Shown: positions 26,150 to 37,155, counted from the whole stretch's first letter. The stretch is 53,184 nt of DNA, filler included, from Basidiobolus ranarum (GCA_040143965.1; 2 parts of 2 records of this genome joined end to end with filler, not necessarily neighbours in it); one strand, 5' to 3'. Notes: generated from the sequence alone by a model not told the origin. Translations and numbers: made by a program.

Positions 26150-26525
26150 TTTCTTATTTACACTCCTGCCGTTCTTTTATGATAGAATTTTCTTGATATT
26201 TTTATTACATCTTCTTGTATTCTTTAGTGAGATTGGGTAAATTATTACCGGTGTGTTCTTAACCAATTCAGTATCTAAAAAGTTACTTTCACATCACATT
26301 CTTGCCAGCCCAATGGCCCAACCTTACATGTTCTTTTCATGCGCTTTGAATGTCACAATAGATGTCGATTCTTGATCAGATCAGGTTCGTTAGAATATAA
26401 CTCAACGTTCAATATGTTAGGGTTAGACTAAGGTATTGGATTGGCAAATTCAAGCATAAAAAGTAAAGCCCATATTTTCGAAAATAACATCGCTGGATTT
26501 GAAAACCACAGATCGAAGGATTTTA

Positions 26526-26657
26526 TTATCTTTTGGCAAGTGGAATGTTGAGATCTTCTTCATCCTGAAACTCGACTTCTTCAGGAAGTTCTTGATCCGC
26601 AAGCTCCTCTTCCTCATCTTCATCATGATACTCATCCTCAGAGTCATCATCTGAGTA
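26526..26657 (-). CDS. Acidic C-terminal fragment of a gene cut by the contig end
   Basis: Reads YSDDDSEDEYHDEDEEEELADQELPEEVEFQDEEDLNIPLAKR* from the N-run; this frame is not the one in the ORF track. Confidence 0.6.
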   Translation of the reverse strand, partial: YSDDDSEDEYHDEDEEEELADQELPEEVEFQDEEDLNIPLAKR

Positions 26658-26757
26658 NNNNNNNNNNNNNNNNNNNNNNNNNNNNNNNNNNNNNNNNNNN
26701 NTTAATTAATTAANNNNNNNNNNNNNNNNNNNNNNNNNNNNNNNNNNNNNNNNNNNN
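26658..26757. other. Artificial contig-joining spacer
   Basis: 44 N + TTAATTAATTAA (26702-26713; stops in all six frames) + 44 N, 100 nt in total. Confidence 0.95.
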
Positions 26758-26925
26758 CCCACTCCACTTAACAGTGTCTTAGATTCTACTGACTTAACTT
26801 TTCTGCTTTGCAACATTCATACAAATACTCCAGATCTCCATACATTAGTTAAGAAATTACAAAAGTAGTTATGGCTTCTTTGTTTTGTTTGAAATAAAGA
26901 TTTCGCCTTTTGGTGACTGTCTCCC

Positions 26926-28534: not shown

Positions 28535-28607
28535 AGTGATAGTGATAGTGATAGTGATAGTGATAGTGATAGTGATAATGATAATGATGATGATGTGATA
28601 GTGATAC
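28535..28607 (+). repeat. Compound microsatellite (AGTGAT)n grading into (AATGAT)/(GAT)n
   Basis: Directly visible; about 7 AGTGAT units. Confidence 0.95.
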
Positions 28608-28760: not shown

Positions 28761-29045
28761 ATGAACTTTGCTGAACGTATCATGGAACTAGCTAAGGAAA
28801 ACGTGAGAAATGGTGGTCGTCCATTTGTCAGTTCAAAATGGGGGATTGTCGTGGAGAGTTCTAATCTTGTAGCTCAAATCCATGATCCTACAGCTCATGC
28901 AGAAATACTTGCTGTAAGAACCGCTTTACCTACTACTAAACAGCCTATTAACATGCAAAAGAGATCAGTAACTTTGCGAAAGAGATTAATAAGCAGCAGA
29001 ATCCTAATTGCTAACCTGAGTTCCATGGTTGAAGAGGGAATTTAG
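28761..29045 (+). pseudogene. Truncated CDA-fold nucleoside/guanine deaminase (GuaD-like) relic
   Basis: MNFAERIMELAKENVRNGGRPF...IVVESSNLVAQIHDPTAHAEILAVRTA has the HAE motif. The segment after GRPF is shortened, and no PCxxC zinc motif was found downstream. Confidence 0.8.
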
Positions 29046-29368
29046 TGTGTATATGAAGGCATTGTAGCTGGAAGTAATATTGACCAAGTTGTTTGTTATT
29101 TCGCTATTCTTCTCATCAATATTATGATATAATAGAATGCCACTTAGTAAATAGATGTCAGTAATAATTGAGTTTATGTATTCCAAATTGATCATATAAA
29201 TTACTTAAATCAACAGGAATAATATTCCTAAAAGGAACTTGAAGAAAGTGCAAACATATTAAATATTATTTTTAAATACATTTATTAACTATTGAATGGT
29301 TTGATTTTATATTTTTAAACACAGTTAGTGATGTTGTTAATTAATATCAAATGTGACTTATTTTGTGG

Positions 29369-30655
29369 CTATTTCTTCGCGGAATCACTTGATATTCCAC
29401 CTTCGTTTCTGTTGTCAAAATCTTCTGGAAGTACAATCTTGCTTCCTGATTTTGATCCGTGGTCACTGCAGCTTAGATTCTTTTTCTTTATATAGCAGTC
29501 ATGATTTTCATCTTCAGATCCAGATGATAAACCACTCCCATATGAAACATCACTACTTCTTTCATCAAGTCTAGGCTGCGATTTACCTTTTGACCGAAAT
29601 CCACAATTTCTTCTTTCACATCTTAATGGGCTTCTATTCTCTGGTTGCTCGTCGCTGTGTTTTCCTTCACGTTTAGAGAGAGATTTGTCCTCATATCTAT
29701 GCGGGGGCTTACTTTTCGATTCACTGCTCCAATGTCGACCATGTTTACGGTAATATTTGTCTTTAGGTCCACCATACGAGTATTTTCTTTCATGTCTAAG
29801 CCAATAGCTATCCTCGTTTTCACTATCCCAGTTACTTCCATCCCGAAGTAAGAATCTGTCATCTGGTGCAGTACCCCAAACTCGTCCACCATGTTTAGGT
29901 GGGAATCTGTCGTCAATTTCGCCACCCCAGTGTCTAGCATGCCTAGGTGGAAATGAATTATTTGGCTCCATACCCCAATGTCGTCCACCACTCCTGAGCG
30001 GGAATCCAACATCAGGCCCTAAACCCCAAGGTCCTCCTCCTTGCCTAAGTAGAAATCTGTCGTCGATTTCGCCACCCCAGTGTCTAGCATGTCCAAGTGG
30101 AAATGAATTATCTGGCTCCATACCCCAATGTTGTCCATCACATCTGGGCGGAAATCCAGCATCAGGCCTTAAGCCCCAAGGTCTTCCTCCCGGTCTGAGT
30201 GGAAATCTGTTATGAATTTCACTACCCCAGTGTCTAGCATGTCTAGGTAGGAATCTATTAACAGGTCCCATACCCCAATGCCATCTACTACATCCGAACG
30301 GAAAACCAATATCAGGATCACTACTCCGAAGTCCACCATCACGTCTAGGTGGGAATCCATCGGGGCCAAAACCCCAGCATTTGCCACCCTTCTTTGTTGG
30401 GAAACTACCTGAAGGTTGATCATGAGAGTGTATTTTGTCCTTAGGATTACAATTACAGCGGCCTCCATCATAACTAAGAGGTAATTTTATTTCAGGTTCA
30501 CAATTACATGTAGCTTGAGGATTATTTTCAACAATGAACGAGGAGGTTGATGAAATAACAGCATCACATCTTTCACATGACAAACCAACATCAGGTGTCA
30601 ATTTCGGCATGGAATCACAACGAGACTTACGGTATACTGAACACTTTGAAGGCAT
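29369..30655 (-). CDS. Unknown protein: Cys-rich N-terminus, WG-containing 16-17-aa tandem repeats, basic/Ser-rich tail
   Basis: Uninterrupted 428-codon ORF from the first ATG, GC-richer than its flanks; 150-bp DNA periodicity at 29901/30051/30201. Confidence 0.8.
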   Translation of the reverse strand: MPSKCSVYRKSRCDSMPKLTPDVGLSCERCDAVISSTSSFIVENNPQATCNCEPEIKLPLSYDGGRCNCNPKDKIHSHDQPSGSFPTKKGGKCWGFGPDGFPPRRDGGLRSSDPDIGFPFGCSRWHWGMGPVNRFLPRHARHWGSEIHNRFPLRPGGRPWGLRPDAGFPPRCDGQHWGMEPDNSFPLGHARHWGGEIDDRFLLRQGGGPWGLGPDVGFPLRSGGRHWGMEPNNSFPPRHARHWGGEIDDRFPPKHGGRVWGTAPDDRFLLRDGSNWDSENEDSYWLRHERKYSYGGPKDKYYRKHGRHWSSESKSKPPHRYEDKSLSKREGKHSDEQPENRSPLRCERRNCGFRSKGKSQPRLDERSSDVSYGSGLSSGSEDENHDCYIKKKNLSCSDHGSKSGSKIVLPEDFDNRNEGGISSDSAKK

Positions 30656-30810
30656 TGCTAAGTAGTTTAATTGATAATTGGAAAGTTGGATCACACTCTT
30701 TTATATTTGAATATCTAATCACGTGCTTCCGTAATCAGTCGGACTCGAACTCCGCAGTTCCAAAAATAGAATCCGCAAGTGACTACGGATATTTCTTTCT
30801 TGGACTTTAT

Positions 30811-30892
30811 CGAAGTAAATGGCATATCAAGTATTCGAAGTAAATGGCATATCGAGTGTTCGAAGTAAATAGCATATGCAAATGGCATATCA
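30811..30892 (+). repeat. 25-bp tandem repeat (about 2.7 copies plus a partial) upstream of the WG-repeat gene
   Basis: CGAAGTAAATGGCATATCAAGTATT / CGAAGTAAATGGCATATCGAGTGTT / CGAAGTAAATAGCATAT...AAATGGCATATCAA. Confidence 0.9.
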
Positions 30893-32765: not shown

Positions 32766-33221
32766 ATGAAATCTTTCTTTACCACACTTGCTTTGGGTAC
32801 CTTGATTTCCATGGCCTCTGCTCTTCCCTCCAACATATCGAACCAGTGCGATGGTTGGTCCGTAGCACCGTTAGAGCACACTTCTGGTGTTCAGGACGCT
32901 TTTGCCGCTAAAAATAAGGTTACTTTGAAGTGGAGCATCGACAATTCAAAAGTCAAATACATCAGAGAGATTGATCTAGTGAGCGCAAAATCTGGCGAAT
33001 TTCTTCACACACAACTCCGCCGTTATCCTGGTTTAGAAGCCACCGATGAGCAGGTATCTTTCACACTCTCCGTACCTCTTTGCTTGCAACGGGAGGGTGA
33101 GTATTACCTAGAGGTCTTCGCCAGCACCCCTGGTAATGAGGCTGATTGCTCTTTGAGAACACCTACCTTCAAAATAACCCCAGACCCTAATGGCGATTAT
33201 AGCATCTGTGAATCGCAATAA
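32766..33221 (+). CDS. Small secreted protein, 4 Cys, probable beta-sandwich
   Basis: Signal peptide MKSFFTTLALGTLISMASA; strand-like patterns KVTLKW, IDLV, VSFTL, GEYYLEV, TFKI; intronless. Confidence 0.8.
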   Translation: MKSFFTTLALGTLISMASALPSNISNQCDGWSVAPLEHTSGVQDAFAAKNKVTLKWSIDNSKVKYIREIDLVSAKSGEFLHTQLRRYPGLEATDEQVSFTLSVPLCLQREGEYYLEVFASTPGNEADCSLRTPTFKITPDPNGDYSICESQ

Positions 33222-36129: not shown

Positions 36130-37095
36130 ATGAGTCTCTACAAGCTGGTTGGCATCCTCTGCTCCGCCTCCCTAATTTATGCCGCCCCATATGGAAACGC
36201 AGAGAAGACGCTAAATCGTATCAAGACAATCGTTGTATTTGGGGATTCTTACAGTGACACTGGTAACGTATTTAAACTCACCAACAAGACCTACCCACCC
36301 CCTTACTACTATGATGGTCACTTTTCCAATGGTCGCATGTGGCCTGAGTACCTTCAAGAAATCACACATTGGAAGGTGATAAACTATGCCTATGGGGGAG
36401 CGACAGGCAAGTGAATGTTTTGAATTTAGTTGGAAGTTAGCTTGGAAAGTTATCTAACACCACTTCATGTAGTTAACAACAAGGTCATCCAAGGATACAC
36501 GGGTCCTGGCAATGATATTCCAGTTCCTAGCATTACTGACCAGATTGAGACACATAAGAATTTCCTCACCAGCAACCCAAATGAGTCCAACCCTAGCTCA
36601 ACCTTGTATGTAATTGAACCAGCAGGAAACGATTATTTCTACGGGGGACTTTCTATCTTACCTCAATCAGTAGCCATGAATATTTACAAGGCCTCCCAGG
36701 TGCTCTTTGAGCCACCATTTTCTGGGGAACACTTTTTGTACTTTAACGTTGCATTGGATCATCTACCATATTACTTGGACAACTCAAACGTTACAGTTAG
36801 AAACCACGCACGCAACGATCGAATCACGCACAACAAAGTTTTGAACGACTTAGTCCGCAGCAATTCTAGAGTGAAGGGCAAAGTGTTTGATTTGAATAGA
36901 TTCTTGCAGAAGGAATTGATCACCCCCAAGTATGTAGACCCTGAGATCCCCTGTATCAAAGACTCCAGTACACCTAATGGAGCGCCGGAAATATGCGAGA
37001 ATCCTGAAAAGAAAGTCTTTTGGGACTTGTATCATCCAACCACCACCGCTCACCAAATGATGGCAAAGGCCATCATTAATACCATTGCGCATTAA
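36130..37095 (+). CDS. Secreted GDSL/SGNH lipase-esterase (GC-AG intron 36407-36472)
   Basis: Signal peptide; block I VVFGDSYSDTGN, FSNG, block II YGGAT|V, block III GNDY, block V FWDLYHPT. Confidence 0.93.
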
Positions 37096-37155
37096 CTTCA
37101 CAAAAAGCTATCATTAATACCATTGCGCATTAACTTCACAAAAAGCTATCATTAA
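37073..37155 (+). repeat. Perfect 38-bp tandem duplication spanning the GDSL stop codon
   Basis: TCATTAATACCATTGCGCATTAACTTCACAAAAAGCTA x2 (37073-37110, 37111-37148) plus TCATTAA. Confidence 0.95.

Follow-up and report, generated by a model that had tools for sequence, protein, structure and literature searches.

The window analysed here, a stretch of 53,184 nucleotides from Basidiobolus ranarum (GCA_040143965.1) in which two parts are joined by filler, consists of intron-rich fungal DNA with a GC content of about 38%. On its minus strand lies a single-exon, stop-free open reading frame (29369..30655) encoding a protein of 428 aa, P0001, without a signal peptide or transmembrane stretch. Every one of 2,000 base shuffles of this frame contained at least 12 stops. 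A TATA-like box is located about 45 nt 5' of the ATG (30698..30705, minus strand) and AATAAA, a possible polyadenylation signal, about 83 nt past the stop codon (29281..29286, minus strand); both are putative transcript signals recognised from their sequence. The N-terminal segment (residues 1-52; 30500..30655, minus strand) contains six Cys (C5, C13, C27xxC30 and C50xC52) that are conserved in alignment with a relative and could form a Zn knuckle or serve as acylation sites. The repeat array occupies residues 93-312 (29720..30379, minus strand), and residues 313-428 form a Ser/Lys/Asp/Glu-rich disordered C-terminal tail (29372..29719, minus strand), in which 56 of 107 aligned residues are identical in the relative. 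A hydrophobic N-terminus resembling a signal peptide was looked for in P0001 and not found, the highest 19-residue hydropathy window reached 0.75, and the four candidate pairs of upstream exon and acceptor were neither signal-peptide-like nor convincing. Since signal peptide, membrane helix and convincing upstream exon are all absent, we infer that the protein is intracellular.

The array comprises 14 units of 16-17 aa with the consensus [HP]-W-x3-P-[DE]-x2-F-P-P-R-x-G-G-R. In its core (residues 126-275; 29831..30280, minus strand) W and F alternate, and successive units of 16, 17 and 17 aa, visible as a W-to-W spacing of 16/17/17, build a higher-order period of 50 aa. The core contains 18 aromatic residues, and all 17 gaps between them measure 8 or 9 residues. 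Ten WG dipeptides are present, at residues 94, 127, 143, 160, 177, 193, 210, 227, 243 and 260, while 100,000 shuffles of residues 93-262 averaged 2.1 and never exceeded 8. These data confirm the roughly 14 units with ten WG in an open frame that a previous, sequence-only reading of the window had described, and place them on the minus strand. Tandem Repeats Finder detected a period of 150 with 2.8 copies, 80% matches and no indels at 29904-30316; the triplet HWGM/HWGG(S)/PWGL, formerly read as occurring three times at 150 bp, thus retains its period, but its third copy ends in VWGT, which leaves 2.8 periods. Units 2 and 12-14 lack WG at the unit position, and unit-like remnants can be recognised by eye at residues 76-92 and 333-349, where HMM scores are not significant. 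The two youngest 50-aa periods, residues 159-208 and 209-258 (29882..30181, minus strand), are mutually identical at 36 of 50 aa and differ by 22 nt per 150. In composition the array is 17% G, 12% R, 11% P, 8% D and 6% each of W, H and F, with a net charge of +5 in 220 residues. Its units contain 2-3 Pro and 3-4 Gly apiece and few aliphatic residues. No second DNA copy of the array occurs within the window.

On the plus strand, the frame in which third codon positions coincide with those of the array (29808-30419) resembles truncated plant-type LRR motifs, W-G and F-P being the antisense image of P-Q and G-N. As a coding frame it was rejected: nine stops interrupt it over the ORF, Pfam, PDB-LRR and NCBIfam searches gave no match, and the W and F codons are invariant at positions that would be free to vary in it. 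An antisense origin of the array from an LRR fragment is conceivable but unsupported.

A search with P0001 against 5.8 billion proteins yielded one match among 2,689 candidates, namely KAK9761898.1 (P0002; E 3e-102), an unannotated hypothetical protein (K7432_012856) of 428 aa from Basidiobolus ranarum. It is 55% identical to P0001 end to end, beginning with five identical residues, and has homologous flanks, the same 16/17/17 period and the six N-terminal Cys; on the basis of this end-to-end similarity we regard it as a putative ortholog. It differs in having only three WG, in apparently possessing one extra N-terminal period and in lacking the latest duplication. Identity amounts to 58% in the N-terminal region, 58% in the array and 52% in the C-terminal region, the array being no better conserved than its flanks. 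Neutral mutation of the P0001 frame to three divergence levels (56-63% identity) introduced 9-11 stops on average, and none of the 3,000 simulations at each level remained free of stops. Because a 55%-identical relative of the same length exists where about ten stops would be expected neutrally, we conclude that P0001 is a real gene, the frame of which has been kept open by selection and not by drift. The neutral minisatellite ORF that the sequence-only reading had raised against its own proposal is not borne out.

Conservation between the two proteins is uneven along the unit. The F column is kept in all ten aligned units (F in nine, Y in one; neutral P 0.002-0.006) and the W column in eight of ten (neutral P 0.02-0.09); the residue following W is identical in six of ten units, and G in five of nine, which equals background. 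Outside the array, the first six Cys (C5, C13, C27, C30, C50 and C52) are all kept, compared with none of the eight further Cys in the alignment (Fisher P=0.0003; the split was picked after the alignment had been inspected). The Cys-rich region noted earlier ahead of the array is present with its CERC, CNC and CNC motifs, but the second CNC (C67, C69) has been lost in the relative. A ZZ-finger origin of this region was considered and rejected, as Pfam gave no ZZ match and only DUF5947, with E=0.23, in the relative. Raw Nei-Gojobori dN/dS between the periods was 0.22-0.40, the lowest of the six frames, a signal that is inflated by transition bias and weaker in a corrected simulation. In the latter, the deficit of amino-acid change among the three periods had P<0.001, 0.014 and 0.38, so that purifying selection among repeats, for which dN/dS had been suggested as a check, is clear in one of the three pairs but not in the other two.

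In amino-acid autocorrelation 50 aa is the top lag in both P0001 (0.47) and the relative (0.41), and the 50-aa period therefore predates the split between the window species and the relative. Residues 159-208 and 209-258 fit the last period of the relative (31/50 and 34/50) better than the collinear one (24/50), and residues 109-158 match the preceding period of the relative at 26 of 50 positions. The two youngest periods probably arose by a duplication or conversion specific to the lineage of the window. In the simplest reading, which we consider likely, one period was gained C-terminally and about one was lost N-terminally with the length unchanged; the optimal global alignment of the two proteins stays collinear, and the shifted-period register is likely rather than proven.

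An exhaustive phmmer search over 1.84 billion representatives returned three matches, KAK9761898.1 and two proteins from B. meristosporus: ORX86091.1 (P0003; 841 aa, with FAS1/fasciclin domains; E 1e-25) and ORX93008.1 (P0004; hypothetical, 376 aa; E 5e-7). Both contain the 17-aa unit, in which W, F-P-P-R and G-G-R keep their register, but their flanks cannot be aligned with P0001, and the arrays alone align. ORX86091.1 has approximately 11 nearly identical units in which W is followed by acidic residues, with WG absent and a net charge of zero, and ORX93008.1 approximately eight degenerate units. A profile built from P0001 and KAK9761898.1 only scored these arrays at 227 and 119 bits, compared with maxima of 22.5 and 19.2 among 500 shuffles each, and the five single units tested from the two proteins each beat 40,000 of 40,000 permutations against the same profile. 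As the arrays and the single units outscore all shuffles, the match reflects residue order and not composition. The unit common to the four arrays, compiled from 35 units, is x-W-x3-P-[DE]-x2-F-P-P-R-x-G-G-R, in which W and F are fixed by the choice of rows, the pattern having demanded W and an F-like residue. Only 14 of the 35 units have G after W, the residues at this place varying among carriers between G, N, S, D or E, and WG occurs 10 times in P0001, three times in KAK9761898.1, three times in ORX93008.1 and not at all in the array of ORX86091.1. From these comparisons we conclude that a W-x7-F-P-P-R-x-G-G-R unit has spread among three otherwise unrelated genes.

In ORX86091.1 the array interrupts the second FAS1 domain, with H1/YH-like motifs at residues 379-416 and the H2 motif at 811; residues 426-810 are a very long insertion in that domain, which includes the array and its 19 KR/RR sites. 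Residues 1-56 are a Skp1 fragment, which the public gene model has probably fused to a tandem FAS1 gene. Fungal FAS1 proteins are described as GPI-anchored, vacuolar or membrane-bound in the accessible part of PMC6032426, and ORX86091.1 would be lumenal or extracellular, as is normal for fasciclins.

Outside these four proteins the unit was not encountered. Pfam contained no family for P0001 at E ≤ 1 and NCBIfam none; among PDB sequences the array profile had no match at E ≤ 10 and P0001 one chance match (E=1.7). Profile searches directed at proteins of greater and of similar length, which scored the best 7,999 and 8,000 candidates, recovered the three input relatives only. None of the pattern matches in metagenome contigs (596 and 131), prokaryote genomes (156) or viral contigs (31) was confirmed as a relative. 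The earlier statement that no family could be recognised holds for Pfam and NCBIfam, but three relatives do exist within Basidiobolus. In the searches made the unit is confined to this genus, which we take as weak evidence for its absence elsewhere because the profile searches covered the best 8,000 or so candidates. No description of P0001 or of the unit was found in the accessible Basidiobolus literature, to which subscription papers and further supplements may add, and the unit appears to be undescribed.

The array is predicted to be intrinsically disordered. AlphaFold2 gave a mean pLDDT of 31 for the whole of P0001 (alignment of two sequences) and 41 for the array (four sequences), with a pTM of about 0.1, and the charge-hydropathy plot places each of the four arrays on its disordered side; disorder and AlphaFold models were among the checks suggested in the sequence-only reading. 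A high Pro and Gly content disfavours amyloid, and the 11-13% Pro and 17-18% Gly observed here speak against the amyloid that had been listed among the options.

We favour, with a probability of roughly 0.45, the interpretation that P0001 is a Basidiobolus-specific, intracellular, disordered sticker-and-spacer scaffold that self-associates via W, F and R contacts. Each unit of 16-17 aa would contribute a Trp and, half a period away, a Phe, together with Arg, and the stickers would be separated by Gly/Pro/Asp spacers in a chain of near-zero net charge. With approximately 24 aromatic stickers at even intervals and 27 Arg, the chains could then enter multivalent pi-pi and cation-pi contacts with one another, giving rise to a dense liquid or gel phase, possibly together with RNA or other unit-carrying proteins, and the conserved N-terminal Cys cluster, as a metal knuckle or a lipid anchor, might position the scaffold. 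According to the accessible parts of the respective papers, aromatic residues, with Trp the strongest, and Arg act as stickers (PMC12002312), and an even spacing of stickers is said to promote liquid condensates rather than aggregates (PMC8638251). The aromatic gaps of P0001 have a coefficient of variation of 0.05 compared with 0.86 when shuffled, and none of 5,000 shuffles was as even, an evenness that follows automatically from being a repeat; the relative is less regular (0.52), and in ORX93008.1 the evenness does not reach significance (P=0.09). The free variation between stickers and the gain and loss of whole periods are as expected if valency outweighs the exact motif.

Single-chain coarse-grained simulations are consistent with this interpretation. 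They used the functional forms of CALVADOS 2 (PMC10450847, in part), with four stickiness values confirmed in that text and the others, the bead sizes and the fixed prefactor of 0.68 nm assumed, in runs of 6-11 ns that were noisy between blocks and included no positive control. With these mostly assumed parameters, the apparent scaling exponent nu was 0.43 and 0.40 for the array of P0001, 0.47 and 0.42 for that of the relative, 0.42 for the fasciclin array and 0.45 for that of ORX93008.1; a 2-ns trial run had given 0.43. Three control disordered regions of the window had values of 0.53, 0.55 and 0.49 in short runs, and lowering the stickiness of W and F, again in a short run, gave 0.49. Fits with a free prefactor ranged from 0.27 to 0.45 for the arrays and from 0.51 to 0.54 for the controls, with 0.46 after W/F lowering. 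For human disordered regions, a nu of at most 0.477 marks the most compact 5%, as stated in the available part of 10.1101/2023.05.08.539815. When full-length P0001 was simulated, the array mainly contacted itself. Because any chain rich in W, F, R and G would collapse in this model, the simulations indicate a capacity for self-association and not its use in the cell. The condensate protein that the sequence-only reading had offered as a candidate is the best fit among its options; the expression, phase separation, partners and cellular role of P0001 we infer.

With about 14.5% aromatic residues, 12% Arg and 17% Gly, a low net charge, regularly spaced aromatics and predicted compaction, P0001 resembles the low-complexity domain of hnRNPA1, the RGG domain of LAF-1 and the N-terminus of Ddx4. 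It differs from these in having no RNA-binding or helicase domain, in having Trp as a main sticker and in its strict 17/50-aa periodicity. In place of RGG, which does not occur, it has R-x-G-G, and the comparison with all three is one of a similar way of working, with no sequence homology shown.

Against the scaffold interpretation, three unrelated genes preserve the exact W-x7-F-P-P-R order, an observation that a specific binding motif would explain just as readily. Conservation of the array moreover does not exceed that of its flanks, and the fasciclin carrier may occupy another compartment. It is possible, if unlikely, that W-x7-F-P-P-R is a tandem short linear motif that binds many copies of one folded domain other than Argonaute, making P0001 a multivalent adaptor. 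The order-specific scores of the five single units from unrelated carriers and the complete retention of F would agree with this, and the same conservation is explained by either interpretation; the two can be separated at the bench only. However, P0001 as a whole contains neither WxxxF/Y nor [WFY]xx[LIV], the residues beside W shift from G to D/E between carriers, the carriers may sit in different compartments, and common descent of the repeat also accounts for the shared order. The uniform identity of 52-58% over the whole protein, and the clear deficit of replacement changes in a single pair of periods, could also mean that the array is filler of little function, a coding minisatellite within an orphan gene whose frame is maintained for reasons unrelated to the array. 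We consider this improbable, given that all 12 unit Trp codons are TGG and all 11 Phe codons TTY in the array, that F is kept 10/10 between species and that the unit has been retained in three gene backgrounds. About equally improbable is a folded solenoid or fibril in which the stacked units form a 17-aa coil with ladders of W and F. The strict unit length of 16-17 aa and the maintained W/F register would suit such a fold, and in the ESM Atlas, which contains the exact P0001 sequence, the model of this protein can be aligned over residues 88-311 to an unnamed bacterial cluster (TM 0.71) and to an LRR cluster (TM 0.56). That model is of low confidence (mean pLDDT 0.42, pTM 0.28), both TM values lie below the naming bar of the tool, and the Atlas model of the fasciclin array has no such match (best TM 0.23). 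The AlphaFold2 values, the 2-3 Pro and 3-4 Gly per unit with few aliphatic residues, and the absence of a PDB sequence relative also argue against a fold; among folded-repeat families, including Pfam WG_beta_rep and LRR, there was no profile match, nor was any confident repetitive fold obtained (pLDDT 31-42).

The remaining alternatives start from single features of the unit. The sequence-only reading had proposed an Argonaute hook, that is, a WG/GW platform scaffolding RNAi effectors, and P0001 does have ten WG in a predicted-disordered and presumably intracellular protein, with W kept in eight of ten units. It shares disorder, a richness in Trp and multiple WG with the hooks of the NRPE1 CTD, SPT5L/KTF1 and GW182/TNRC6. 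We applied the dos matrix of Table 1 and the extension rule of PMC2910046, the matrix being derived from plants; on the parts of that paper available, three of ten WG-centred fragments exceeded the cut-off of 6.99 (7.57, 7.64 and 10.29), but the whole array scored -118 half-bits, with a mean of -0.54 per residue as opposed to +0.58 in the reference set, and the extension rule split it into ten pieces of 2-19 aa. According to the same parts, published WG/GW domains span 92-654 aa, four table rows score 64-108, and in true hooks only WG/GW is conserved. The composition of P0001 is the reverse of that of such domains, its array containing 24.5% of C/F/H/M/Y/I/L where the reference set has 4.9%. 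WG is moreover not the conserved element, with 10, 3, 3 and 0 per array: F is best kept, G after W stands at background, the repeat is strictly positional and the unit exists without WG. The hook proposal is hence not supported, on grounds of both conservation and composition. Argonaute pockets bind Trp side chains, Gly not being strictly needed, and because binding through Trp alone would be compatible with these data we still grant a hook a small chance.

Copper binding in the manner of the prion protein, the other comparison drawn earlier, fares less well. In this proposal His/Trp units would bind Cu or Zn, and the Cys cluster would provide a further site. The arrays do combine His, Gly and Trp: His makes up 6-7% of three of them, the array of P0001 has seven HW dipeptides, 7 of 11 His are kept in the relative and the six N-terminal Cys are conserved. 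The motif of the octarepeats is His-Gly-Gly(-Gly-Trp). His-Gly-Gly occurs once in P0001 (1 of 14 units), three times in the relative and in neither of the other two carriers, the retention of His equals background (58%) and the fasciclin array has just 3.5% His, making a PrP-like metal repeat very improbable. Least probable, and close to negligible, is a precursor cut into repeat peptides, either a Kex2-processed repeat protein or a RiPP, for instance a dikaritin precursor. Its cores are repetitive, the fasciclin array has 19 KR/RR sites, and B. meristosporus is the strain richest in Kex2-processed repeat proteins, with 43, in the accessible part of PMC7329392. P0001, however, has no ER signal peptide and a single KR/RR site in its array of 220 aa (two in the relative), and Pfam revealed no tailoring-enzyme cluster among the 22 ORFs of the window. 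In the tables of PMC7329392 that were accessible ORX86091.1 and ORX93008.1 are absent, although the model of ORX86091.1, which has no proper N-terminus, would have been filtered out of that survey.

P0001 is the product of a real orphan gene and belongs to a familiar class, the disordered aromatic/Arg repeats, with a unit that appears to be undescribed and is restricted to one genus in the searches made. Lineage-specific disordered repeat proteins are common, and the finding opens no long-standing question. What we regard as most notable is the reuse of the unit in three unrelated genes and the strict W/F periodicity: a coding repeat spreads among unrelated genes, including a fasciclin, and its 50-aa period turns over between species with the W/F register held. 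Should the protein phase-separate, the rules of stickers and spacers could be tested on a natural sequence of unusual regularity with Trp as sticker; Trp stickers are poorly captured by current models according to the available part of PMC12002312. A bolder and rather doubtful extension is that Basidiobolus possesses, in the 17-aa W/F/Arg unit, a portable coacervation module specific to the genus, which it has transferred between unrelated genes and tuned by compartment. If so, it would be Gly-rich and near neutral in the intracellular proteins and a charge-block polyampholyte in the fasciclin loop, and would represent a natural periodic polymer with Trp stickers, serving a material peculiar to the fungus such as a spore, wall or adhesive matrix. 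For sequence scans the array holds a caution, namely that a disordered reading frame does not become an Argonaute hook by containing ten WG.

The neighbouring genes are ordinary and encode a Myb/SANT factor, a SET protein, an ion channel, a GDSL lipase, an S9-type hydrolase, a GH31 glucosidase and a phosphoesterase; Rfam gave no matches in the window. Convergent with the repeat gene is an intronless fragment resembling cytidine/adenosine deaminases (28764-29045, plus strand; Pfam PF00383, E 0.004; TadA model, E 0.0008), in which the similarity ends after about 57 codons and is followed by stops; it looks like a decaying gene. Non-coding tandem repeats are found at 28535-28606 (a 6-bp microsatellite with 12 copies), at 30810-30877 (25 bp, 2.7 copies, some 155 bp 5' of the P0001 start codon) and at 37065-37155 (38 bp, where the GDSL lipase gene ends). 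Runs of N and a short stop-codon linker occupy 26659-26758, where an acidic ORF (26450-26705, minus strand) is truncated, and since this gap cuts the ORF the gene order across it is unreliable. Two small single-exon genes on the plus strand (32769-33221 and 39165-39542) have signal-peptide-like starts and no significant Pfam family, the former with a weak Ig-like match (E 0.0007). A large gene with long exons (46388-49283, minus strand) combines tectonin (beta-propeller lectin-like) repeats with a class 3 lipase domain, which is an unusual architecture.
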